Assembly: GCA_942491855.1 (NCBI GenBank)
Contig: CALOCL010000003.1
Coordinates: 39,497 to 103,496 of the forward strand
DNA from: an uncultured Bacteroidales bacterium
GTDB taxonomy: Bacteria; Bacteroidota; Bacteroidia; Bacteroidales; GCA-2711565
DNA: 64,000 bases
Direction: 5' to 3'
Below the pieces are notes generated by a model that was not told the DNA's origin, made no database searches, and worked only from the letters and a program-made list of their open reading frames with translations. This document shows, in pieces, positions 3,358-63,959 of this stretch (the stretch's first letter is position 1; each line of letters opens with the position of its first letter). The position numbers were made by a program, and so were the translations under genes.

Positions 3358-4833
3358 ATGAAAATTCTAGGTAAAAGTACTATTATTATAATCACTTGTC
3401 TATTATTCACATTATTAACTGGATGCCTTCTAAATGAGAATAAGTCAAAAGACAAAAAGATTAAAGACTTAATGGATCAATACCACGATCTAGGTCAGTT
3501 TAACGGTTCTGTTCTGGTTTCGAAAGGTGATAATATTATTTATAAGAGTGGGTATGGGCTAGCAAATAGAGAATGGAATACTTATAATGATCCTGAAACA
3601 AAGTATAGACTGGGCTCCATTACTAAACAATTTACGGCTGCCATTATTCTAAAATTGGTGGAAGATGGCAAACTAAGCTTAGATCAGAAGATTATTGAAA
3701 TCCTTCCAAATTTTAATCAAGAAAGCGGTTTAAAGGTAAGCATACATCATTTACTAACCCACACATCAGGGATTCCCATGCCTCAATTATCTCGTGAAGA
3801 ATATGATGACATTTTTCAAAATAAACAAAGTACCGAACAACTTATAAAAAAATTATGCAATGAAGACTTAGCATTTAATCCAGGCTCAGAATTCAGATAT
3901 AGTAGTGCAGGTTACATAATCTTAGGTGCCATCATTGAACGAATAACAGCAAAAACTTGGGAAGAAAGCATCAAGGAATATATTCTTGACCCTTTAGAGA
4001 TGAACGATACAGGTGTTGATGATTACGAAAAAATTATTCCTAAAAGAGCTTCCGGATACCAAACCAATTATGGAAATGGTAACGCTCACTTTAAGTATAT
4101 GCCAAGTTCCTTTTCATCGGGTGCATTATATTCTACGGTTGAAGATATGCATAAGTGGTTTGTGGGATTGTGCAACAATAAAGTAATTTCCTCAAATCTG
4201 AAAGATTTAATGTTTTCAAAACATATTGGAAAACACCCTAGATATTTTGGATACGGGTGTTTTGTGGATGAGGTTGAGGTTAATGATTCAATAGTCAAAA
4301 TGATTTCTCATGCTGGAGATGTACATGGTTTCAGTGCCATCATTCTAGGAAACCCTCAAAATCAGGAGGCGGTTGTTCTTCTTTCTAATCAAGAAGGTAC
4401 TCACTATTACGAAATCGCTAATAATCTATTCAATATTCTAAATGACCTTGATGTTGATACACCAAAAAAATATGTTGCGGATGTATTAAGAGAAACCATT
4501 TATGCATCTGGAATTGAAATGGCCAAAAATAAATATTATGAAATGACAGAACTAGGATTTGAAAATTTCAATACTGACATTAGTGAATTGATTGAATTAG
4601 CCCAAGATTTGCAATATACCGGTAAGATTAAGGAGTCAATTGAAGTATTGAATATTACCTCCAGCTTACATCCTGATTCATATTATGTATTCGAATGCCT
4701 TGGTGAAGCTCTCTTTATTGAGAAAAACTTCAAATTAGCAATTCAGAATTTTAAGAAATCTTATACATTAAACCCTGAGAATATAAACGCTTTACATAAG
4801 ATTAATGAAATTGAAAAGATGATTGAAAAATAA
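3358..4833 (+). CDS. Beta-lactamase-fold serine hydrolase (S12-like) with C-terminal TPR-like tail, lipoprotein
   Basis: 491-aa ORF with lipoprotein-type signal (LLTGC). SxxK motif in LGSITKQFTA, YSSAGY (YxN-like) motif, TPR-like helical repeats at aa ~400-491. Confidence 0.85.
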   Translation: MKILGKSTIIIITCLLFTLLTGCLLNENKSKDKKIKDLMDQYHDLGQFNGSVLVSKGDNIIYKSGYGLANREWNTYNDPETKYRLGSITKQFTAAIILKLVEDGKLSLDQKIIEILPNFNQESGLKVSIHHLLTHTSGIPMPQLSREEYDDIFQNKQSTEQLIKKLCNEDLAFNPGSEFRYSSAGYIILGAIIERITAKTWEESIKEYILDPLEMNDTGVDDYEKIIPKRASGYQTNYGNGNAHFKYMPSSFSSGALYSTVEDMHKWFVGLCNNKVISSNLKDLMFSKHIGKHPRYFGYGCFVDEVEVNDSIVKMISHAGDVHGFSAIILGNPQNQEAVVLLSNQEGTHYYEIANNLFNILNDLDVDTPKKYVADVLRETIYASGIEMAKNKYYEMTELGFENFNTDISELIELAQDLQYTGKIKESIEVLNITSSLHPDSYYVFECLGEALFIEKNFKLAIQNFKKSYTLNPENINALHKINEIEKMIEK

Positions 4834-12618: not shown

Positions 12619-14952
12619 ATGTTTAGAAATTATTTGATAATTATCTTAAGGAATTTTAAACGAAACTTCACATTTTCCTTAATCAATATTTTAGGCCTTA
12701 CTATTGGTCTAATAGTAAGTGTTTTGATTCTATTATATGTTGTAAATGAATTAACATATGATTCCTATCACAAAGACGCGAATAGAGTATACAGAATAAC
12801 TACCAAGATGGATATTGCTCAAATGAATGCACAGATGCATGACAATAAAGCAGTAGCACCTTTAGGTCCATTCTTAGTAGCTGGGTATCCAAAAATAACA
12901 GAATATACTAGAATCTCAGAAAAAGAGAACATTCAATTCTTACATAATAACAATCTATATAAAGAAGAAATATTTTACGCTGATTCGAGTTTTTTTGAAA
13001 TATTTACCGTCAACTTTCTTTATGGAAATCCAAGGAGTGCTTTAGTTGAACCAAATTCAATAGTTATAACCAAAGCAATTGCAGATAAATTTTTTGGAGA
13101 ATCAAATCCTTTAGGGAATTTTATCATTACCGATAAGAAAGAGCAATACAAAGTGACAGGTGTTGTAGAGTCCATTCCCGAAAACTCTCATTTTAAATTT
13201 GATATTCTTACTTCATTTTCCAAATTAGGCAGAAAGGATTCTTGGAATAACATCAATGACAAATACTCGACATACATTAAAATAGCATCAGATTATACTC
13301 CTTCAGAAGTTGATGTGGCGCTTTTACAAATAATTAAAGATCATTTATCAAGCAATCCAATGTTTGAGATATCCCTTTCCTTAGAACCTTTACAAGAAAT
13401 ATATCTTTATTATGGAGGAGGTGGAAATCTATCTAGGATCTTGTTATTTTCTGCCATTGGAATTTTCGTCTTACTAATTGCAAGTATAAATTTCATGAAT
13501 CTAAGTACAGCCCAATCAGCTACCAGAATGAAAGAAGTTGGGGTGCGAAAAGTAATTGGAGCCTATCGCAAGCAATTAGTCATGCAGTTTCTAGCTGAAT
13601 CTATTGTTTTTTGTTTGCTTGCTCTATTCCTTGCTCTGACAATTGCTGAATTATTAATCCCATCTTTTAATGGGTTTTTGCAAAAAAACTTAAAGATTAA
13701 TTACATTACTCAGTGGCCTCTAACCCTGGGATTTATATTCTTGGCCCTTTTTGTTGGTTTCTCAGCTGGAAGTTATCCTGCATTCTTTTTATCCTCTTTT
13801 AAACCTATAACAGCACTCAAAGGAAAATTTGTTGTTGGTACAGGCCAAAGTATATTACGAAATATTCTAGTTACATTTCAGTTTACAGTTTCCATATTTC
13901 TAATCTGCAGTACAGGCATTATTTACATGCAACTTAATCATATCAATAATACAGATCTAGGGTTTAAAAAAGAAGGTATAATGGTAATTGATTTACATAC
14001 AGGAAATGTAAACCCCGATTATTTAAAAAACGAGTTACTAAAATTACCTGAAATAGAGCAATTAACACTTGCGTCTAATTTTCCCTTTTTTGGCTTGAAT
14101 ATTACAAGCTTTCAAACAGAAGAATCTGAACAAGAATTTCAAGGATCCTTCAGCAGTGTTGATTTTAATTTTATCGACCTACTAGGTCTCGAAATAATTA
14201 AGGGCAGGCAATTTCTGAAAGAAAATTCAACTGATGATAAAAGTATAATTATTAATGAAACATTAGCAAAAGAACAAAATTGGGAAAACCCAATTGGCAA
14301 AACAATAAAGTACAAGGATGAGGATTATCGCGTTATCGGTGTAGTTAAAGATTATCACTATTCTCCTTTACACAATCGAATAAAACCAATATTTCTAATA
14401 TTATCTGATTTCTATATTTCAGAGGTTGGCTTAAAAATAGCTACTGATAATATTCAAGAAACAATCAAAAAAATTGAATCTGTATATAAAGATGTTGATG
14501 ATTCCGGAGAATTCAATTTCAGTTTCATGGATGAAAAAATCAAGAAAATGTATTTAGAAGAAAATCGTACAGGTAAAACTTTTATACTATTTACAATATT
14601 GGCCATATTCATTGCATCCATGGGGTTATATGGTTTAGCATCATTTGTAGCTAAACAGAGGACCAAAGAAATTGGCATAAGGAAGGTTTTAGGCTCAACG
14701 ATTAACGAAATTGTGATTAACCTTTCAACAGATTTCCTAAAACTGATATTAATAGCTACAGTAATAGCGATTCCAACATCCTGGTATTTTACAGAAAACT
14801 GGCTTCATAATTTTGCATATCAAGTGGGAAATCGCTGGTGGATTTTCGTTCTCTCAACAGTAGTTGCAGTTTTTATTGCATTTATCACAATACTTCATCA
14901 ATCTCTTAAAGCAGCAAAAGCAAATCCTGTAGATACTATTCGACATGAATAA
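12619..14952 (+). CDS. FtsX/MacB-like ABC transporter permease (no adjacent ATPase)
   Basis: 777 aa. N-terminal TM, MacB-like periplasmic domain, and two FtsX 4-TM modules each preceded by a conserved loop (EVGVRKVIGAYRKQL and EIGIRKVLGSTINEI). Confidence 0.9.
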   Translation: MFRNYLIIILRNFKRNFTFSLINILGLTIGLIVSVLILLYVVNELTYDSYHKDANRVYRITTKMDIAQMNAQMHDNKAVAPLGPFLVAGYPKITEYTRISEKENIQFLHNNNLYKEEIFYADSSFFEIFTVNFLYGNPRSALVEPNSIVITKAIADKFFGESNPLGNFIITDKKEQYKVTGVVESIPENSHFKFDILTSFSKLGRKDSWNNINDKYSTYIKIASDYTPSEVDVALLQIIKDHLSSNPMFEISLSLEPLQEIYLYYGGGGNLSRILLFSAIGIFVLLIASINFMNLSTAQSATRMKEVGVRKVIGAYRKQLVMQFLAESIVFCLLALFLALTIAELLIPSFNGFLQKNLKINYITQWPLTLGFIFLALFVGFSAGSYPAFFLSSFKPITALKGKFVVGTGQSILRNILVTFQFTVSIFLICSTGIIYMQLNHINNTDLGFKKEGIMVIDLHTGNVNPDYLKNELLKLPEIEQLTLASNFPFFGLNITSFQTEESEQEFQGSFSSVDFNFIDLLGLEIIKGRQFLKENSTDDKSIIINETLAKEQNWENPIGKTIKYKDEDYRVIGVVKDYHYSPLHNRIKPIFLILSDFYISEVGLKIATDNIQETIKKIESVYKDVDDSGEFNFSFMDEKIKKMYLEENRTGKTFILFTILAIFIASMGLYGLASFVAKQRTKEIGIRKVLGSTINEIVINLSTDFLKLILIATVIAIPTSWYFTENWLHNFAYQVGNRWWIFVLSTVVAVFIAFITILHQSLKAAKANPVDTIRHE

Positions 14953-35024: not shown

Positions 35025-35055
35025 TATGGTTTAGTTCATTATTAAACCAAAAGTG

Positions 35056-37479
35056 ATGATCAAAAACTATTTTAAAACTGCTTTAAGAAACATTGTGAGA
35101 AATAAACTATTCACATTTCTAAACATTTTAGGCCTTTCATTAGGTCTCGCAACCGCTATCCTTATTTTATTTTGGGTTCAGGATGAACTGAGTTATGATC
35201 GATACCACAATAACTCAGAGAATATTTATAGGGTGACCGGGGACTTTGTTTTGAGTGGAAACAGAACACATACTGCAGTGGCTTCCCCTCCAATGGCTAT
35301 GACAATGATACAGGATTACCCAGAAGTAATGAATGCCTGTCGACTCAGACAAGTTGGTTCAAGAATATTAGGTGTTGGTAATGTCAGATATAAGGTGGAT
35401 GAAGTAACCTATGCCGATTCTACCTTTTTTGAGCTCTTCAATATACCTGTACTCGAAGGCGATAAAAATAACTTGCTCAACCAACCCAACCTGATTGTAT
35501 TAAGCAGAGAGACGTCAGAACGATTTTATGGGGATAAAAACGCCGTTGGAGAATTAATTAAGGTCGGTTCTAGAACATATATGGTTTCCGGAATTTACGA
35601 TAACATCCCCGAGAATACACATTTTCATTTCGATATTCTATTCTCGATGCCAAGTTTAGAAGATAGCTTCAGTCAAATGTGGCTTAACAATAATTACCAC
35701 ACATATATCGAGGTTCATCCAACGACAGATATCGAGAAGTTAGAAGATCAGATGCAGGAAATGGTTGTTAGATATTTGGGGCCAGATATTGAAAGATTTG
35801 TTGGAAAAACACTGGATGAATTTATAGGTGACGGTTCAGCAGCTTATCATTTACAAAAGCTAACGGATATTCACTTAAAGTCAGACTTAATAGCTGAACT
35901 TGAAGTAAACAGCGATATCAGTAATGTTTATATTTTTTCATTCATCGCACTATTCATTTTGATTATTGCCTGCATTAACTTTATGAATATGGCGACAGCC
36001 CGTTCAGAAGGGCGTAGCAAAGAGGTTGGGATTAGAAAAGTTGCCGGTGCAATCCGTGGTCAAATTATCTTTCAGTACCTTTTAGAATCATTTGTTATTA
36101 CCTGTATATCCTATTTTCTAGCCATGATATTGGTTGAGGTCTATTTACCAAGTTTTAATGCACTTTCTGACAAATCAATAAACATTCAGTATTTTGAACC
36201 ACAAACCTTATCGGTTTTACTGTTAATTATTTTATTCACTAGTCTATTGGCTGGTAGTTACCCCTCATTTTACCTTTCCTCTTTCCAACCTATTGTAAGT
36301 TTAAAAGGTGGCATTAAATCAGGTAAATCAAGTGGCAGATTAAGAAATATTTTGGTTGTCGTTCAATTTTTTACGACCATCATCCTTATCAGCAGTAGTA
36401 TTTTTGTTTACAAGCAATTAGGTTTTATTCTTACAAAGAAACTTGGGTTCGAAAAAGAACAGTTGTTATGCCTTCACAATATGAATGCGCTTGGTGATAA
36501 GTCTGAACTTTTAAAACAAGAGTTATTAAACTACCCGGAAATCATCAATGGAACAATATCCTCTTTTTTACCCGTACCTTCCAGCTCAAACAACTCAGTG
36601 GTTTTCCCTGATGGAGATCAAACCAAGTTAGTTACTTTTTACCAATGGGTTGTTGATGAAGATTATGTTGAAACCTTTCAGATGAAATTGGTTGAAGGAA
36701 GAAATTTATCGAATGAATATGGGACAGACTCATTGTCGGTGGTGGTTAACCAGGCAGCTCTTAAACAATTTGGTTGGGAGACCGCTAAAGGTCATTTTAT
36801 ACAACTATATCTGGACGATGATGGCAATACTGCAGATTATAAGGTTGTAGGTGTACTTGAAGACTTCCATTTTGAATCACTTAAAGATCCGATAAATCCA
36901 ATGCTAATGAGCCTTGGCAACCTAATGGGGTTGAGTAATACTGGCTTTTATTTGACCTTAAGATATGATGCTCAAAACACTGAAAAAGTCATCCGTTTAT
37001 TAGAAGATAAGTGGGCTGAGTTTGTACCCAATTATCCATTTGAATACTCGTTTATTAGCGACCGTTTTAACAGCATGTATGATCAGGAGAATCGAATGGG
37101 TGAAATTATGAAGATTTTTACCATACTGGCAATTATAATCGCTTCACTGGGTTTATTTGGGCTAACTGCTTTCATTGCTGAGAAGAGAACCAAAGAGATT
37201 GGTATCCGAAAAGTGAATGGCGCAAGTTTTATGAATATATTCATGCTCTTTACAAAAGACATTGCCAAACTTATAATCATAGCATTTATTCTCGCAGTAC
37301 CTTTAACCTGGTACGTCATGGACAATTGGCTAAACAACTTTACCTATCGTATTCAAATAAATTGGATCGTATTTATTGGTGCTGGTATCATGGCATTCAT
37401 ATTAGCCATCATTACCATTTCTTATCAGGCGATTAAAGCTTCTTCACAAAATCCGGTAGATTCATTGAAATACGAATAA
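35056..37479 (+). CDS. FtsX/MacB-like ABC transporter permease (no adjacent ATPase)
   Basis: ~807 aa with the same architecture as 12619..14952. Loops EVGIRKVAGAIRGQI and EIGIRKVNGASFMNI. Confidence 0.9.
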   Translation: MIKNYFKTALRNIVRNKLFTFLNILGLSLGLATAILILFWVQDELSYDRYHNNSENIYRVTGDFVLSGNRTHTAVASPPMAMTMIQDYPEVMNACRLRQVGSRILGVGNVRYKVDEVTYADSTFFELFNIPVLEGDKNNLLNQPNLIVLSRETSERFYGDKNAVGELIKVGSRTYMVSGIYDNIPENTHFHFDILFSMPSLEDSFSQMWLNNNYHTYIEVHPTTDIEKLEDQMQEMVVRYLGPDIERFVGKTLDEFIGDGSAAYHLQKLTDIHLKSDLIAELEVNSDISNVYIFSFIALFILIIACINFMNMATARSEGRSKEVGIRKVAGAIRGQIIFQYLLESFVITCISYFLAMILVEVYLPSFNALSDKSINIQYFEPQTLSVLLLIILFTSLLAGSYPSFYLSSFQPIVSLKGGIKSGKSSGRLRNILVVVQFFTTIILISSSIFVYKQLGFILTKKLGFEKEQLLCLHNMNALGDKSELLKQELLNYPEIINGTISSFLPVPSSSNNSVVFPDGDQTKLVTFYQWVVDEDYVETFQMKLVEGRNLSNEYGTDSLSVVVNQAALKQFGWETAKGHFIQLYLDDDGNTADYKVVGVLEDFHFESLKDPINPMLMSLGNLMGLSNTGFYLTLRYDAQNTEKVIRLLEDKWAEFVPNYPFEYSFISDRFNSMYDQENRMGEIMKIFTILAIIIASLGLFGLTAFIAEKRTKEIGIRKVNGASFMNIFMLFTKDIAKLIIIAFILAVPLTWYVMDNWLNNFTYRIQINWIVFIGAGIMAFILAIITISYQAIKASSQNPVDSLKYE

Positions 37480-37493
37480 TTAAATCTCCAGTA

Positions 37494-39893
37494 ATGATCA
37501 TAAATTACCTAAAAACAGCATTAAGAAACATTGCAAGAAATAAATTATTTACATTTTTAAATATTTTAGGGCTCTCACTAGGTCTGGCGACAGCTATCCT
37601 TATTCTATTTTGGGTACAGGATGAATTGAGTTACGATAAGTATAACAAAAACGCAAAAAACATTTATCGAATCACCAGTGATTATCAATTACCAGGAGAA
37701 AAATTTAAAGGGACTACAACATGTCCGCCAATGGCAGGAACATTAATTAATGATTACCCTGAAATACTAAATGCATGCAGATTCAACAGAAACATTGGTG
37801 GAAATTTAAGCGTTGGAGATAAGAAATTTAGCATTTCTAATCTTGCCTACGTCGATTCAACATTCTTTGATTTGTTCAGTGTTGCTCTATTAAAAGGAGA
37901 TAAAAAAAACCTTTTAAACCATCCAAACTATCTGGTATTGAGCGAAACAACTGCAAAACAACTATTTGGAGAAAAGGATCCCATCGGAAAATTAGTCACA
38001 GTGGGAAATGAATCTTTTTTGGTCAAAGGTATTTATGCTGATATTCCGGAAAATTCTCATTTCCATTTCAATATTTTGTTTTCAATCTCAAGCTTGAAAG
38101 CTAGTTTGAGTCCGGTTTGGTTGGACAATAATTATTACACTTATATTCTTTTGTATCCTGAAGCGGATCCTGAAAAGCTAGAACAACAAGTACATGAAAC
38201 GGTCATGAAACATATTGGTCCGGCTCTTGAAAATGCAACCGGACAAACGATGGATAAATTAATTGGAGATGGTTCCATTTCATTTGAGCTTCAAAAGTTA
38301 ACCGACATTCATTTACATTCCCATTTGATGGGAGAACTAGATGTAAATGGGAATCTTTCAAATGTTTATATCTTTTCTTTTATCGCTCTTTTTATTCTGA
38401 TTATAGCTTGTATCAATTTCATGAATATGTCTACAGCTCGATCCGAAAGTCGAAGCAAAGAAGTTGGTATTCGCAAAGTTTCAGGCGCAGCAAGAGGTCA
38501 AATTATTTTTCAATTTCTACTCGAATCATTCATTATTACGTTGCTATCCTACTTTTTCGCAATGATTTTAATTGAGATTTATCTACCCAGCTTCAATACG
38601 CTCTCAGGAAAAAACATTAACATCAACTATTTCGAGCCTTTTACTCTTTTCATCCTCTTCGGCATAATTATTTCTACCAGTTTCATATCAGGGAGCTACC
38701 CTGCATTCTACCTATCTTCATTTCAACCTATCGAAACTATGAAAGGAGCTTTAAAGGGCGGCAAATCGAGCGGAAGACTCAGAAATGTATTAGTTATTAT
38801 TCAATTTTTCACAACAATTATTCTAATCAGTAGTAGCATTTTTGTATACAATCAATTAAAATTTATTCAAACAAAAGAACTGGGATTTGACAAGGAGCAA
38901 CTAATATGTATTGGTAATTTAAATGCCTTAGATGATAAAGCCAATAATTTTAAACAAGAACTACTAAACCATCCCGAAGTAATTAGTGCAACCATTTCTT
39001 CCTTCTTGCCGGTACCTTCCGCCGGGTATCATGACGCTGTTTATCCGGATGGTGATAAAAATAATATGGTGGGGTTGTATCAATGGTTTGTGGATGTGAA
39101 TTATATTGAAACCCTTAGGATGAAGATTAAAACGGGAAGAAACTTCTTAGAAGAATCCGGAACTGATTTGCAAGCGGTACTGATTAATGAGAAGGCACTA
39201 AAGCAATTTGGATGGGAAACATTTGAAGGACATTTTATTACCAGAAAATCAAGCCAAGAGGCAACTAAATACAAAGTTATTGGTGTGCTGGAAAATTTCC
39301 ATTTCGAATCCTTGAAAAAAACAATTTCACCAATGATTATGCAATTAGGAGAAGGTGGGTATTATTTAACAATGAGGTACAATGCCACCAACGCCCAAGA
39401 CATCATTCAATTATCGGAGAAAAAGTGGAAAGAATTTGCACCGAATGATCCATTTGAATATTCTTTTGTTGATGATCGCTTCAATAATATGTATTCTCAG
39501 GAACAACAAGTTGGTAAAATCATGAAAACATTCACCTTTCTGGCAATCATAGTTGCATCTCTTGGTTTGTTTGGATTGGCCGCATTTATTGCCGAAAAAA
39601 GAACCAAAGAAATTGGAATCAGAAAAGTGAACGGAGCCAGTTTGATAAATATTTTTATGTTATTCACTAAAGATATCACCATACTAATTCTAATTGCTTT
39701 TATTCTGGCCGTGCCATTAACATGGTACATCATGAATCAATGGTTAAATAATTTCACCTATCGGGTCGATATAAACTGGCTGGTATTTTTGAGCGCAGGA
39801 TTACTTTCTTTTGTGATTGCAATGCTAACTATTTCGTACCAAGCTTTCATGGCCTCTTCGCGAAATCCAATTGAATCCTTAAAATACGAGTAG
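37494..39893 (+). CDS. FtsX/MacB-like ABC transporter permease, tandem paralogue of 35056..37479
   Basis: 799 aa. The N-terminal 45 aa are nearly identical to the upstream paralogue (NYLKTALRNIARNKLFTFLNILGLSLGLATAILILFWVQDELSYD). The start is 14 nt after the upstream stop. Confidence 0.9.
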   Translation: MIINYLKTALRNIARNKLFTFLNILGLSLGLATAILILFWVQDELSYDKYNKNAKNIYRITSDYQLPGEKFKGTTTCPPMAGTLINDYPEILNACRFNRNIGGNLSVGDKKFSISNLAYVDSTFFDLFSVALLKGDKKNLLNHPNYLVLSETTAKQLFGEKDPIGKLVTVGNESFLVKGIYADIPENSHFHFNILFSISSLKASLSPVWLDNNYYTYILLYPEADPEKLEQQVHETVMKHIGPALENATGQTMDKLIGDGSISFELQKLTDIHLHSHLMGELDVNGNLSNVYIFSFIALFILIIACINFMNMSTARSESRSKEVGIRKVSGAARGQIIFQFLLESFIITLLSYFFAMILIEIYLPSFNTLSGKNININYFEPFTLFILFGIIISTSFISGSYPAFYLSSFQPIETMKGALKGGKSSGRLRNVLVIIQFFTTIILISSSIFVYNQLKFIQTKELGFDKEQLICIGNLNALDDKANNFKQELLNHPEVISATISSFLPVPSAGYHDAVYPDGDKNNMVGLYQWFVDVNYIETLRMKIKTGRNFLEESGTDLQAVLINEKALKQFGWETFEGHFITRKSSQEATKYKVIGVLENFHFESLKKTISPMIMQLGEGGYYLTMRYNATNAQDIIQLSEKKWKEFAPNDPFEYSFVDDRFNNMYSQEQQVGKIMKTFTFLAIIVASLGLFGLAAFIAEKRTKEIGIRKVNGASLINIFMLFTKDITILILIAFILAVPLTWYIMNQWLNNFTYRVDINWLVFLSAGLLSFVIAMLTISYQAFMASSRNPIESLKYE

Positions 39894-58698: not shown

Positions 58699-59409
58699 AT
58701 GTTAAAAGACATTAAACTACATCGTATTTTATTTATCGATATTGAAACCGTACCTGCATACCCCAGCTATGCTGAAATGCCTGATAATTTTCAATTATTG
58801 TGGGATCAAAAGGCCGAAAGATTAAAAAAAACGGATAAAGATACGCCTGATCAAATCTATAACAAAGCAGGAATTTACGCTGAGTTCGGGAAAATCATTT
58901 GCATTTCTGCTGGTTACTTTTACAATGAAGAATTCAGACTAAAGTCATTTTATTCGGATGATGAGAAACTTTTGCTCACAGCGTTTAATGAATTATTAAA
59001 CAGTCATTTTAGCAGCCGCCAACATTTACTATGTGCCCATAATGGTAAGGAGTTTGACTATCCTTACATTGCCAGGCGCATGCTCATCAATGGAATTCAA
59101 CTTCCCTCTATTCTCGACATGGCTGGTCAAAAACCCTGGAACATTCCTCATCTTGATACCATGGAATTGTGGAAATTTGGCGATTACAAACACTATACAT
59201 CACTGGCATTACTTGCTTCAATTTTTGATATTTCCACTCCAAAAGACGATATTGACGGAAGTGATATTGCGAGAGTTTATTGGCAGGATCATGATTTGGA
59301 ACGTATTGCCAAGTACTGTCAAAAGGATGTTTTAACCGTAGCTCAACTTTTCCTAAAATACCAAAACAAAACCCTACTCGATCAAAATCAAGTGGTAGTT
59401 ATTCCTTAA
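58699..59409 (+). CDS. 3'-5' exonuclease, PolB-exonuclease-like (RNase H fold)
   Basis: ILFIDIETVP (ExoI), CAHNGKEFDYPYI (ExoII) and YCQKDVLTVAQL (ExoIII-like). Confidence 0.75.
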   Translation: MLKDIKLHRILFIDIETVPAYPSYAEMPDNFQLLWDQKAERLKKTDKDTPDQIYNKAGIYAEFGKIICISAGYFYNEEFRLKSFYSDDEKLLLTAFNELLNSHFSSRQHLLCAHNGKEFDYPYIARRMLINGIQLPSILDMAGQKPWNIPHLDTMELWKFGDYKHYTSLALLASIFDISTPKDDIDGSDIARVYWQDHDLERIAKYCQKDVLTVAQLFLKYQNKTLLDQNQVVVIP

Positions 59410-59536: not shown

Positions 59537-60763
59537 ATGAAAAAACTTTCGATATTATTTTTTGTCATTCTGCTGCCTGTTTTGATGATGGCGCAAGATC
59601 AATCAAAATTTGGGATTAAATTTACGGGTTTTGTTAAGAGTGATATTTACTACGATTCACGTCAGGGAGTTTCTGCTCGCGAAGGACATTTTTATTTATA
59701 TCCAATGAATGAATCCCTGGATGTAAATGGTGTTGATATCAATGGAAAATCCACCTTTAACATGTTGAGCATCCAAACAAGGCTTACAGGAGTAATTACA
59801 GGCCCTGATGCTTTCGGTGCAAAAACCTCAGCCTTGATTGAAGGAGCATTCTTTGGTCACACAGCACCTGACATTAACGGTTTCCGCTTACGACACGCAT
59901 TTGCCAAACTTACTTGGGATAACACAGAACTTTTGGTAGGTCAGTTTTGGCATGCCATGTTTATTACTGATTGTTTTCCGGGCACGGTTTCCTTTAATAC
60001 CGGAGCCCCATTTCAGCCATTCTCACGAAATCCACAAATTAGATTTACTCAAAAATTTAATGATGTAAAAATGATTTTCACTGCCATGTCGCAACGCGAT
60101 TTCACAAGTACAGGACCAGCGGGTGCAAGTACAGCTTACCTAAGAAACAATGTTATACCAGAATTAAATTTGACGCTTCAGTACAGCACAAAAGGAGAAA
60201 ATGGAAACTCATTCTTAGCAGGAGTCGGGGCTGATTACATGTCAATTATTCCAATGATTGAATCTGAGGCCGGATTAGCAGTGGATGAACCTGTAACAGG
60301 ATTCTCAACCATGGCTTTTATGAAATTCACTACCAAAGATATTACAGTGAAATTTGAAGGAGTATTGGGACAAAACACCACTCATCTTACCATGTTGGGT
60401 GGTTATATAGGTTATGTTGAAACTAATCAATTTCAAGAATTTTCACCTATAAAAACTGCTTCAATGTGGACAGACATTCATAGTAATGGCAAGAAAGTTC
60501 AAGTAGGTTTGTTTGCTGGGTTTACGAAAAACCAAGGTTCAGATAAAGACAACCGAAATGCATTTTTTAGCCGCGGGTCAAATATTGACTACATCTATCG
60601 TTTCTCTCCACGAATCAATTTTAATTCTGGGAAAATGCGTTTCTCTGGTGAGATTGAATACACAACAGCTGCATATGGAAACCCTATAGAAGACAGTACC
60701 ATTGCTAACAGCAATGAAGTTAATAACTTACGTTTATTAATTGGTGTTTACTACTTTTTTTAG
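59537..60763 (+). CDS. Outer-membrane beta-barrel porin-like protein
   Basis: 408 aa with signal peptide (MMAQD), a beta-strand-rich pattern and a terminal YYFF. Confidence 0.55.
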   Translation: MKKLSILFFVILLPVLMMAQDQSKFGIKFTGFVKSDIYYDSRQGVSAREGHFYLYPMNESLDVNGVDINGKSTFNMLSIQTRLTGVITGPDAFGAKTSALIEGAFFGHTAPDINGFRLRHAFAKLTWDNTELLVGQFWHAMFITDCFPGTVSFNTGAPFQPFSRNPQIRFTQKFNDVKMIFTAMSQRDFTSTGPAGASTAYLRNNVIPELNLTLQYSTKGENGNSFLAGVGADYMSIIPMIESEAGLAVDEPVTGFSTMAFMKFTTKDITVKFEGVLGQNTTHLTMLGGYIGYVETNQFQEFSPIKTASMWTDIHSNGKKVQVGLFAGFTKNQGSDKDNRNAFFSRGSNIDYIYRFSPRINFNSGKMRFSGEIEYTTAAYGNPIEDSTIANSNEVNNLRLLIGVYYFF

Positions 60764-60902: not shown

Positions 60903-62342
60903 ATGGAAAAACACCTTTTATCAAAATCAACATTTATTCGAAGTACGCAATGTTTAAAATCACTTTATTTACACAAACGCAGGCCTTTTTTACGTGATAG
61001 ATTATCGGCAGAACAATTGGCCAAGTTTAAAAGAGGAACAGATGTTGGAATACTCGCCCAGCATTTATTTCCAGGAGGTGCGGATTTACAACCTAAATCA
61101 CCGGCTCAATACAGAAAGTCGGTGGTAGCAACTGGTGAACAATTAGAAACCAAAGATGATTTTACCATTTACGAGGCCTCCTTCCAAAGTGATCAAATCC
61201 TAATTATTCTTGACATTTTAGAACAAAAAGAAGGAAAAATTTATGCTTATGAAGTAAAAAGCTCACTGGCCATTTCTGAAACTTACCTAAAAGATGCAGC
61301 TTTGCAGTTCTATGTAATCGAGGAATCTGGTACCAAGATCGAAGATTTTTTCATTGTTTACATCAACGAGGATTATCAATTTACAGAGGATGAACTAGAT
61401 TTAAATCAATTCTTTAAAATTGAATCGGTCCTAAATAAAGTATTGGAACTTCAATCTTACATAAAAAAGCAGATCCCAAAAGCAAAAGAAACTTTAACCT
61501 TGAAGCACTCTCCTGAAATAAGTATTGGGCCTCAGTGCCATTCTCCCTATCCTTGCGACTTTAGGCGACATTGCTGGAAACATTTGCCCAAAGAATCAAT
61601 TTTTGATCTGCCTTTTCTATCAGAAGCTCAGAAATTTGAGATGCATTCCAAGGAAATCTTCGAAATTTATGAAGTTGAAAATTATTTCAATTTGAGTGAG
61701 ATTGAAAAGATTAAATTAAATTGTCATTTGAACCAGAATACTCATTTTAACAACTCAAAGATTAAAAGCTATATCGATGAAATCAATTATCCAATAAATT
61801 TTATCAATCTGTCGAATATCTCCTCTGCTGTGCCCAGATGGAAAAACTGCAAACCTTTCGAGCCTATCCCATTTCATATTTCGATTTTAACTTTATCTGA
61901 AGATCAACAGTACAGCACATCATCATTTATGCTTAGTTCAGATGAAACTTCTCCAAAAGAAGCGATTGGAAGCTACCTTACAGAAGCAATGAGTCCTAAT
62001 TCCAGCATTGTTATTTTCGATCAAAAGGAAATACTGAAAAAGATTCCGGGGTTTACAGAAGAATTCCAAATCAATGATTTGGTTGATTTGATAAGTGAGA
62101 ATGTTGTTTATCATCCAGGAATTACAGAACAGATTAGTCTTCAAGACATTAACACTGAATTACTAAAAAACAAAAGAAATAAGAGCATGCTTAGTCAACT
62201 TCAGGTTCATCAAAAATTGAATACTTTTCTGGATGATGAAGATGAACAAAAAAACATCATAAAAGAAGTTGAACAGAGTGGTGAAGCAAATAACCAGGTA
62301 ATGCTTGAATTTTGGAAGATACTCCAAGGAATTGTTGAATAA
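60903..62342 (+). CDS. DUF2779-like protein with N-terminal PD-(D/E)xK / Cas4-type nuclease features
   Basis: 479 aa. The opening LSKSTFIRSTQCLKSLYL, YAYEVKSS (ExK) and the Cys cluster CHSPYPCDFRRHC are as I recall for DUF2779. Confidence 0.65.
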   Translation: MEKHLLSKSTFIRSTQCLKSLYLHKRRPFLRDRLSAEQLAKFKRGTDVGILAQHLFPGGADLQPKSPAQYRKSVVATGEQLETKDDFTIYEASFQSDQILIILDILEQKEGKIYAYEVKSSLAISETYLKDAALQFYVIEESGTKIEDFFIVYINEDYQFTEDELDLNQFFKIESVLNKVLELQSYIKKQIPKAKETLTLKHSPEISIGPQCHSPYPCDFRRHCWKHLPKESIFDLPFLSEAQKFEMHSKEIFEIYEVENYFNLSEIEKIKLNCHLNQNTHFNNSKIKSYIDEINYPINFINLSNISSAVPRWKNCKPFEPIPFHISILTLSEDQQYSTSSFMLSSDETSPKEAIGSYLTEAMSPNSSIVIFDQKEILKKIPGFTEEFQINDLVDLISENVVYHPGITEQISLQDINTELLKNKRNKSMLSQLQVHQKLNTFLDDEDEQKNIIKEVEQSGEANNQVMLEFWKILQGIVE

Positions 62343-62426: not shown

Positions 62427-63959
62427 ATGGAAGATGCTTCAAAGAAGAGAATAGAAAGTTCACGAAAACGGACTAAACAATCAGGTCAAACAGGTGGGCT
62501 TTGGGAACATGGAAAAGTTCCACCACAAGCTACTGACCTAGAGGAAGCTGTTCTTGGAGCAATCATGCTGGAAAAAGATGCCTTAACCCAGGTTATCGAC
62601 ATTCTCAAACCTGAAGTATTTTACAAAGAATCACATAACATTATTTTTGCCGCAATCTCTCGTTTATTCGGTAAATCAGAGCCCGTTGATATTTTAACCG
62701 TAACCAATGAATTAAAAAACAGTGGTGAACTCGAAATGGTGGGCGGCCCTTATTACATCACTCAATTAACAAACCGAATTGCTTCCGCAGCGAATGTTGA
62801 ATATCATGCAAGAATTATTTCACAAAAATTCATTCAACGCGAATTGATTCGAATTTCTTCAGAAATTATTAAAGACGCTTTTGAGGATACTACTGATGTT
62901 TTTGATTTGCTGGATAGAGCCGAACAAAATCTATTTTCGGTAAGTGAAAGCAATTTAAGACGTAGTTACGATGATATGCAGTCATTGGTTACTGATGCGA
63001 TAAAAGAAATTGAAGCCGGTAAAGGTCAGGAAGGTCACCTCAGAGGAATTGCTTCGGGTTTTACCGATTTGGACAGGGTTACCAATGGCTGGCAAAAATC
63101 TGACTTGGTCATTTTAGCCGCCCGTCCGGGTATGGGTAAAACTGCTTTTGTACTTTCTATGGCGCGTAATGCGGCCATTGATTTCAACAAAGCGGTTGCA
63201 TTTTTCTCCTTGGAGATGTCATCTATCCAATTGGTTACACGTCTTATCTCTAGCGAAACTCAACTATCAGCCGATAAACTGAAAAAAGGGAATCTGGAAA
63301 GTTACGAATGGGAGCAACTTCATTCTAAAATCAGCAATCTTACGGAAGCAAAACTGCTGATTGATGATACTCCGGCATTAACAGTTTTCGAACTCCGTGC
63401 CAAATGTCGTCGATTAAAAGCCCAGCACGATATCCAAATGGTGATTATCGATTACCTACAGTTAATGAGTGGAAGTGGAGATTCCAAAGGAAACAGGGAA
63501 CAGGAAATTAGTACCATTTCACGCTCGCTTAAAGCGCTCGCAAAAGAATTAGAGATTCCGGTCATTGCATTATCTCAGTTAAGTCGTGCCGTTGAAACCC
63601 GTGGCGGGTCAAAAAAACCCATTCTTTCAGATTTACGTGAATCGGGTGCCATTGAGCAGGATGCGGACATGGTAATGTTTATTTATCGACCCGAATATTA
63701 TAAAATTGAAGTTGACGAAGACGGTAACTCTACGGCGGGAATTGCAGAAATCTGTATCGCAAAACACCGTAACGGTGCCCTAAAAGATGTTCCACTGCGA
63801 TTCATTGATAAGTTTGCTAAATTCGCTGATCTTCATACCGATGGAGATGGGGAAGCGTATACAGGATTCGATGCCAACGAAGATTTTGATGCAGGAATTC
63901 CAACCCGTACCATTCCTTCAAAAATGAATGATATGAGTGAAGACGATATTCCATTTTAA
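62427..63959 (+). CDS. dnaB: Replicative DNA helicase DnaB
   Basis: 510 aa. N-terminal domain PPQATDLEEAVLGAIML, Walker A ARPGMGKTAF, Walker B MVIIDYLQLM, and RecA-like motifs ALSQLSRAVE and DADMVMFIYR. Confidence 0.95.
   Translation: MEDASKKRIESSRKRTKQSGQTGGLWEHGKVPPQATDLEEAVLGAIMLEKDALTQVIDILKPEVFYKESHNIIFAAISRLFGKSEPVDILTVTNELKNSGELEMVGGPYYITQLTNRIASAANVEYHARIISQKFIQRELIRISSEIIKDAFEDTTDVFDLLDRAEQNLFSVSESNLRRSYDDMQSLVTDAIKEIEAGKGQEGHLRGIASGFTDLDRVTNGWQKSDLVILAARPGMGKTAFVLSMARNAAIDFNKAVAFFSLEMSSIQLVTRLISSETQLSADKLKKGNLESYEWEQLHSKISNLTEAKLLIDDTPALTVFELRAKCRRLKAQHDIQMVIIDYLQLMSGSGDSKGNREQEISTISRSLKALAKELEIPVIALSQLSRAVETRGGSKKPILSDLRESGAIEQDADMVMFIYRPEYYKIEVDEDGNSTAGIAEICIAKHRNGALKDVPLRFIDKFAKFADLHTDGDGEAYTGFDANEDFDAGIPTRTIPSKMNDMSEDDIPF

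Follow-up and report, generated by a model that had tools for sequence, protein, structure and literature searches.

The stretch of DNA analysed here, referred to as the window, comprises 64,000 nucleotides from an uncultured Bacteroidales bacterium (GenBank assembly GCA_942491855.1, contig CALOCL010000003.1, positions 39,497 to 103,496 of the forward strand) and carries near its end a dnaB gene, whose product terminates in an acidic extension with a tip resembling the one on SSB (single-stranded DNA-binding protein). The list of open reading frames (ORFs) places this gene at 62427..63959 on the forward strand, specifying 510 amino acids and a stop codon, and its parts are as follows, in window coordinates:

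62427..63959, forward strand: dnaB, replicative DNA helicase (Pfam DnaB and DnaB_C, TIGR00665, closest solved structures)
62520..62822, forward strand: DnaB N-terminal domain, residues 32-132 (PF00772, E = 1.1e-32; helical in the AlphaFold2 model)
63045..63830, forward strand: RecA-like C-terminal ATPase domain, residues 207-468 (PF03796, E = 2.6e-109, model positions 1-255 of 255)
63837..63908, forward strand: variable acidic tail linker, residues 471-494, HTDGDGEAYTGFDANEDFDAGIPTR (4-58% column identity; predicted local distance difference test score, pLDDT, below 50)
63909..63932, forward strand: conserved motif 1, residues 495-502, T-I-P-S-K-M-N-D (alignment of 112 homologues)
63939..63956, forward strand: conserved motif 2, the SSB-tip-like C-terminus, residues 505-510, E-D-D-I-P-F, with a free carboxylate (alignment of 112 homologues)
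63957..63959, forward strand: stop codon TAA, read directly, making Phe510 the true C-terminus

The product of 62427-63959 is a bona fide DnaB replicative helicase, in which both diagnostic domains are present. TIGR00665 matches it with 552 bits against a cutoff of 385, the Walker A motif GMGKT is invariant across the DnaB alignment, and the closest solved structures are the DnaB proteins of PDB 2r6a, 2vye, 2q6t and 6bbm. The Pfam search of the protein returned no SSB/OB fold (PF00436), so the protein is not an SSB and has only the tip in common with one. Canonical DnaB proteins (E. coli, Geobacillus/Bacillus, Vibrio, Aquifex) share the same two domains, with 40-55% identity over residues 30-470, but their models and structures end near the equivalent of residue ~470 and none has a Pro-Phe tip. 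The TIGR00665 model ends at residue 470, no solved DnaB structure, whether from Geobacillus, Bacillus, Thermus, E. coli, Vibrio, Aquifex or elsewhere, aligns beyond residue 467-472 of the query, and the E. coli-type protein ends in ...NYAGPQYDDE, as seen in locus L144.

The C-terminal tail, residues 471-510, therefore lies beyond every DnaB model and solved structure. Read directly, the protein ends in ...FADLHTDGDGEAYTGFDANEDFDAGIPTRTIPSKMNDMSEDDIPF-stop, and the longer C-terminal stretch of the same 510 residues is ...KFAKFADLHTDGDGEAYTGFDANEDFDAGIPTRTIPSKMNDMSEDDIPF, followed by TAA. The preliminary description of this locus, made from the sequence alone, had proposed an acidic extension of about 45 residues; its presence and acidity hold, while its length is revised to about 40 residues, the span then given (63828-63959) corresponding to codons 468-510 plus the stop and so beginning slightly before the extension. 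About 10 residues follow the equivalent point in E. coli DnaB, making the window protein longer by about 30 residues. The last 42 residues contain 11 D/E and 2 K/R, giving the tail a net charge of about -9, and its aromatic residues stand in acidic context (TGFD, EDFD, DIPF). In an AlphaFold2 model of the DnaB single chain, built with 25 diverse homologues as input, the last structured element is a strand at residues 465-468, and residues 472-510 have pLDDT values of 36-43 and no secondary structure, compared with a whole-protein mean of 78.5, bearing out the disorder earlier suspected for the acidic linker. This monomer model gave no sign of the tail docking onto the DnaB core.

At the other end of the protein, residues 1-27 (window 62427-62507) are basic (7 K/R), poorly conserved and predicted to be disordered (pLDDT below 50), their charge being opposite to that of the C-terminal tail.

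The final five amino acids of the protein, DDIPF, are those of E. coli SSB (DDDIPF), an identity that had been pointed out before and that direct reading of the sequence confirms. The Phe510 codon, TTT, abuts TAA, so that the phenylalanine bears a free carboxylate, and the same is the case in homologues. At the level of sequence, the tip has every attribute expected of an SSB C-terminal (SSB-Ct)-type peptide, including its position at the extreme C-terminus, acidic residues followed by Pro-Phe, and a disordered linker preceding it.

The closest 120 homologues, with 70-100% identity and including several labelled as Bacteroidales or Bacteroidota metagenome-assembled genomes (MAGs), all have a tail of similar length except those that are truncated. 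Per-column conservation was calculated for 112 of them, aligned from the AKHRNG motif onward, and is only 4-58% in the linker (471-494), which also differs in length between lineages. Two islands stand out from this background. The first, which the preliminary description overlooked, has the form T-x-P-S-K-M-N-D (T495 97%, S498 99%, M500 91%, N501 92%, an acidic residue at 502 91%); the second is the tip itself, with acidic residues at 505, 506 and 507 in 91, 96 and 75% of sequences, P509 in 99% and F510 in 97%, whereas position 508 (-2 from the end) is variable, Q being the commonest residue there in the clade of the window. Such a pattern, in which nearly fixed blocks punctuate a freely changing linker, typically marks short linear motifs within disordered protein, and the last ~40 residues of this DnaB are an intrinsically disordered acidic tail with two such motifs under purifying selection.

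More distant relatives came from 1.84 billion proteins, clustered at 50% identity and searched exhaustively with HMMER; the best 150 DnaB representatives among them have 45-69% identity to the window protein. The C-terminus is Pro plus an aromatic residue in 104 of these 150, and several others end in acidic residues followed by Phe, against a chance expectation of about 0.2% for a Pro-aromatic end (own estimate from residue frequencies). Given this conservation across homologues, the DDIPF match goes far beyond chance. Within the window, no other stop-to-stop ORF of at least 60 amino acids ends in acidic-x-Pro-Phe. Because hundreds of independent assemblies encode the tail with its protein sequence conserved, an annotation or frameshift artefact is ruled out.

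Many of the 50%-identity representatives are 640-1300 amino acids long with split matches, consistent with intein insertions (P0261-P0271, P0274, P0275, P0279, P0288-P0290, P0378 and others), and the acidic Pro-Phe tip is still present in most of these long proteins.

A scan of GTDB species genomes with the DnaB alignment yielded 80 named loci, in which every gene was followed to its stop codon. The Bacteroidia set comprises 62 of them, from Bacteroidales, Flavobacteriales, Cytophagales, Chitinophagales and Sphingobacteriales. Here DnaB ends in Pro-Phe or Pro-Tyr at 48 of the 62 loci and in an aromatic residue at 58, and an S-[KR]-[ML]-N-like block is found upstream of the tip, likewise at 58 loci; written more fully as T-x-P-S-[KR]-[ML]-N-[DE], this motif varies very little among Bacteroidia DnaB proteins. 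The two motifs are adjacent in the clade of the window (PSKMNDMSEDDIPF) and 20-45 residues apart in Flavobacteriaceae and Bacteroides. Named representatives have the following DnaB C-termini:

Bacteroides faecis: ...TEGPLPF
Phocaeicola plebeius: ...PIGDVPF
Flavobacterium sp. SLB02: ...DDDDSDVPF
Chitinophaga pinensis: ...FSGQVPF
Hymenobacter ginsengisoli: ...FGEEPPF
Chryseobacterium sediminis: ...DDDDDFPF
Polaribacter aquimarinus: ...DDDDVPF

The distribution extends beyond Bacteroidia. Two Balneolia DnaB loci end in ...DDDSPF and ...DEDAPF, and the DnaB of a 'Chlorobiota' MAG ends in ...VPPDPF. The latter, used as a query, returned 120 relatives, the named ones belonging to Kapaibacteria, Ignavibacteria and Chlorobi, of which 118 have an aromatic end and 68 end in Pro-Phe, mostly after acidic residues. 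The SKMN block was found in none of these 120 tails, nor in the two Balneolia loci. Neither tail nor tip was found in eight Clostridia/Bacillota loci, a delta-proteobacterium, Melainabacteria or Gemmatimonadaceae, in which the stop codon lies 5-15 residues past the core. As the tip is present in Bacteroidia and their sister lineages and absent from the loci outside them, the acidic Phe-terminated tail is, on the sequences compared, an old trait common to the Bacteroidota/Ignavibacteria/Chlorobi/Balneolia group, and the SKMN motif is, on the same comparison, a later addition in Bacteroidia. The preliminary description had named beforehand the lack of the extension in close orthologues as grounds for abandoning its idea; the extension proved to be conserved in close and distant orthologues alike, in Bacteroidota and in sister lineages, a superphylum-wide spread beyond this genome that had gone unremarked.

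Several lineages have further elements of their own in the tail. The Ignavibacteria/Kapaibacteria-type DnaB proteins (P0424-P0543) carry a post-core element, [FY]-[DE]-E-P-P-P, directly after ...ARFENL, followed by an acidic run and a terminal Phe. A third recurring element, ...P-S/T-x-[DE]-A-F-G..., lies after the SKMN block and before the tip in Flavobacteriaceae tails (L010, L011, L013, L014, L017, L022 and L049). In the Rhodothermales locus L043 (~4330-4500), the dnaB frame continues into a 942-residue fusion with the downstream gene; since the +1 frame ends in ...GGGSDAF-stop, a frameshift error in the MAG is likely.

Phages whose Bacteroidota hosts are known gave a mixed picture, the two considered being Cellulophaga phage phi39:1 (L161, 2740-2979) and Riemerella phage CRP5 (L162, 2691-2870). 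The DnaB of phi39:1 lacks a Pro-Phe tip but has ...DPREAFGP..., and that of CRP5 ends in ...KDAF. On viral-class contigs of IMG/VR (L081-L160), 29 of 80 DnaB homologues end in Pro-Phe or Pro-Tyr after acidic residues, with examples including NDEDIPF, DSKDLPF, DEDDEMPF and DKSDLPF; the closest of these contigs (L081-L084) may be host fragments.

Within the window, neither tblastn with E. coli SSB nor a scan of all ORF C-termini found an ssb gene. A protein database was searched with an OB-domain-only, Bacteroides-like query, and because this query carried no tail, the resulting counts are unbiased toward any tip. The 120 SSBs returned, with named members from Bacteroidales, Flavobacteriales and Bacteroidota, include 114 ending in DDLPF, one in EDLPF and one in DDLPY. 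The only same-genome pair comes from a Crocinitomicaceae MAG (L005), in which ssb (2336-2776) directly precedes a dnaB gene of the same strand, the SSB ending in ...HLDDDPLPF and the DnaB in ...NRPIDSPF. Since Bacteroidota SSBs end in DDLPF, the helicase tip is, judged by sequence, of the same motif class as the SSB tip of the clade and not a copy of it. The preliminary description had counted a different tip motif on the SSB as a second ground for abandoning its idea, and the idea survives this check as well, the SSBs of the clade using the same class of tip. The two tips are not identical, the SSB having Leu at -2; as position -2 of DnaB varies, the exact match to E. coli DDIPF is incidental.

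The best explanation of the tail, with about an even chance of being right, is that it serves as a flexible SSB-type docking peptide, which would tether one or a few fork proteins to the helicase; this reading draws on the conserved motifs and on analogy with tails of known function. The earlier proposal that the helicase could recruit SSB partners or compete with SSB for them is thus partly supported and plausible. Proteins recognise the SSB tip through the side chain and free carboxylate of its terminal Phe, together with the Pro before it and the acidic residues, exactly the elements that are conserved in the DnaB tail. In E. coli, the SSB hexapeptide DDDIPF engages many partners (PMC5872125), and in B. 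subtilis 12 or more proteins, PriA, RecG, RecQ and DnaE among them, are recruited to forks by the SSB C-terminus (PMC3000357). The likeness between the DnaB tail and SSB-Ct (DDDIPF in E. coli, DDLPF in Bacteroidota) thus covers the terminal acidic-acidic-hydrophobic-Pro-Phe sequence, the free carboxylate and the disordered acidic linker, but the DnaB tip is borne by a hexameric helicase and not by an OB-fold binder of single-stranded DNA (ssDNA), its -2 position is variable (V, I, P, A, S, Q and others) where the SSB of the clade has a fixed Leu, and the tail adds the helicase-specific T-x-P-S-K-M-N motif. Because -2 is free to vary in DnaB, in contrast to the almost invariant tip of SSB, the helicase probably has fewer partners to suit with its tip than SSB has.

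The closest precedent for such a tail on a helicase, and a well-studied one, exists in phage T7, whose gp4 protein carries acidic C-terminal tails binding to basic patches of gp5, the polymerase, at the C-terminal face of the ring, and in which removal of 17 residues reduces processivity from 17 kb to ~5 kb (PMC12593628). The gp4-tail peptide DTDF was seen on gp5 in PDB 6P7E and used as a template for docking the tail of the T7 SSB, gp2.5, which is likewise acidic and Phe-terminated (PMC12339929). The two systems have in common a superfamily 4 (SF4) hexameric helicase, an acidic aromatic-ended C-terminal tail, which in gp4 projects from the C-terminal face toward the polymerase, and a cognate SSB with the same kind of tail. 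They differ in that the T7 tail (...DTDF) belongs to a phage system, is 17 residues long and has no Pro before Phe, and its partner, gp5/thioredoxin, is unrelated to bacterial DNA polymerase III (Pol III), whereas the helicase encoded in the window is that of a cellular chromosome, and its tail is a trait found across an entire bacterial superphylum. The preliminary description, which knew of no such tail on DnaB, had missed this phage precedent; for cellular DnaB, no description of an SSB-like tail was found in the searchable literature, a coverage outside which most subscription journals lie.

The RecA (C-terminal) face of DnaB leads at the fork and meets the loaders and the leading-strand polymerase. 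Each DnaB hexamer displays six flexible tails on this leading face, and the tip would plug into a site of the SSB-tip-binding type, where the terminal Phe would enter a hydrophobic pocket and the carboxylate and the aspartates would meet a basic rim. Candidate partners, in no order of preference, could include the Pol III core or clamp loader, PriA, primase and DciA.

Several observations weigh against a docking role of this kind. Leu occupies -2 in only 4 of the 52 DnaB tips ending in Pro-Phe/Tyr at the named loci, the others having V, I, P, A, S, T or M. Pro is missing at 14 of the 62 Bacteroidia loci, which end in ...DEF, ...PDF, ...TDF, ...ADF or similar; the aromatic residue is penultimate in L044 and L060, and the Prevotellaceae locus L066 has none. 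The SKMN motif has no counterpart in SSB tails and could not be matched to a known binding motif. The resemblance could also be convergent, acidic aromatic-ended tails being a generic solution.

It is possible, though unlikely on the sequence comparisons, that the tail is instead a helicase-loading handle at oriC or at restarted forks, offsetting a DciA reduced to its bare domain or letting PriA seize DnaB directly, in which case the SSB-like look would be either exploited (PriA having an SSB-tip pocket) or convergent (DciA). Bacteroidota are not known to have DnaC/DnaI or PriB/DnaT, which counts in favour of such a handle. About 84% of Bacteroidetes DciA homologues are of 'Group 4', consisting of the domain only, those of rhodothermaeota, chlorobi and calditrichaeota are mostly bare domains too, and in V. 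cholerae the disordered C-terminus of DciA is needed for DnaB binding (bioRxiv 10.1101/2022.01.24.477630). PriA is a known SSB-tip binder (PMC3000357). As the lineages with bare DciA largely coincide with those whose DnaB has a tail, the tail may be a handle for DciA, DnaA or PriA. The DciA extension of V. cholerae type resembles the DnaB tail in being a disordered segment for helicase-partner contact in loading, but it is on the loader and not on the helicase and has no sequence resemblance to the tail, the link being so far one of phyletic coincidence. That coincidence is also incomplete, since Cytophagia DciA proteins have the extension, yet Pontibacter and Hymenobacter DnaB retain the tail. 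Bare DciA is found in Chloroflexi and Thermotogae as well. Capture of the helicase by PriA at stalled forks, or by bare DciA or DnaA at oriC, via its SSB pocket is rather improbable; were it to take place, SSB-coated DNA and helicase would be handed over on one site, and Bacteroidota/Chlorobiota would use an adaptor-free loading and restart pathway unlike that of E. coli or B. subtilis.

An autoregulatory function as a DNA mimic is likewise improbable. On this proposal, which is modelled on the SSB and T7 gp2.5 tails acting at their own DNA-binding clefts, the tail would fold back on DnaB, covering its basic or DNA-binding surfaces, or would settle on the SSB OB fold, gating ssDNA entry, blocking off-target DNA binding or aiding SSB displacement before loading. 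The net charge of about -9 and the several aromatic residues in acidic context agree with it, as does the known binding of the SSB C-terminus to its own OB domain (PMC3936761). However, the AlphaFold2 monomer, with pLDDT below 50 throughout the tail, has no tail docking, and pure charge mimicry needs neither a near-invariant Pro-Phe nor an invariant T/S/M/N pattern. Finally, that the tail is a tolerated low-complexity extension without specific function and its likeness to the SSB tip fortuitous is very hard to credit, for although neither the sequence nor the length of the linker is well conserved and a few lineages have altered tips, a terminal aromatic residue is kept at 58 of the 62 Bacteroidia loci and by 118 of the 120 DnaB proteins from sister lineages, down to ~45% overall identity, and retention of the tip while the flanking linker drifts indicates selection on a short linear motif.

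Two other identities for the tail were rejected. It does not fit a beta-clamp-binding motif (QL[SD]LF type), having no Gln/Leu pattern and an acidic context atypical of such motifs, and a secretion or degradation signal is discounted, DnaB being cytoplasmic and the tail having no match to a known bacterial C-terminal degron.

Only in E. coli and B. subtilis have the coupling of the helicase to its partners and its reloading after fork collapse been worked out in detail. Most bacteria, including the Bacteroidota that dominate in the human gut, are not known to have the loaders and adaptors of those two species. Conservation of an SSB-type docking peptide on DnaB suggests that in this group the helicase itself may dock a fork partner, which appears to be undescribed for cellular DnaB; what would be new here is the T7-style arrangement of an SSB tail on a helicase in the chromosomal helicase of a superphylum, together with an extra helicase-specific motif. 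The conserved peptide offers a handle for finding the direct partner of the helicase throughout the superphylum. If the docking role is correct, the T7 principle, in which helicase and SSB use the same tail for the same partner, would extend from phage to cellular replisomes, and a competitor would be added to the SSB interaction hub, which is itself pursued as an antibacterial target.

The surroundings of dnaB are those of an ordinary chromosome, including genes for peptidases, beta-lactamase-family proteins and MacB/FtsX permeases as well as a LytTR two-component system and a module of PspC/LiaF type, and no gene for an SSB partner was found within the window. The genes upstream of dnaB are:

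58699-59409, forward strand: 3'-5' exonuclease of PolB-exo/RNase-H fold
59537-60763, forward strand: 408-residue ORF with no Pfam match
60903-62342, forward strand: DUF2779 protein with a Cys-rich CHSPYPCDFRRHCW stretch, directly upstream of dnaB

A DUF2779 homologue with 33% identity is also found just upstream of dnaB in the Bacteroidales MAG L003. Elsewhere in the window there are three paralogous MacB-PCD/FtsX ABC permease genes encoding ~780-810 amino acids (12619-14952, 35053-37479 and 37494-39893), two of which are adjacent, as well as two beta-lactamase-family genes and two S15 X-Pro dipeptidyl-peptidase genes.

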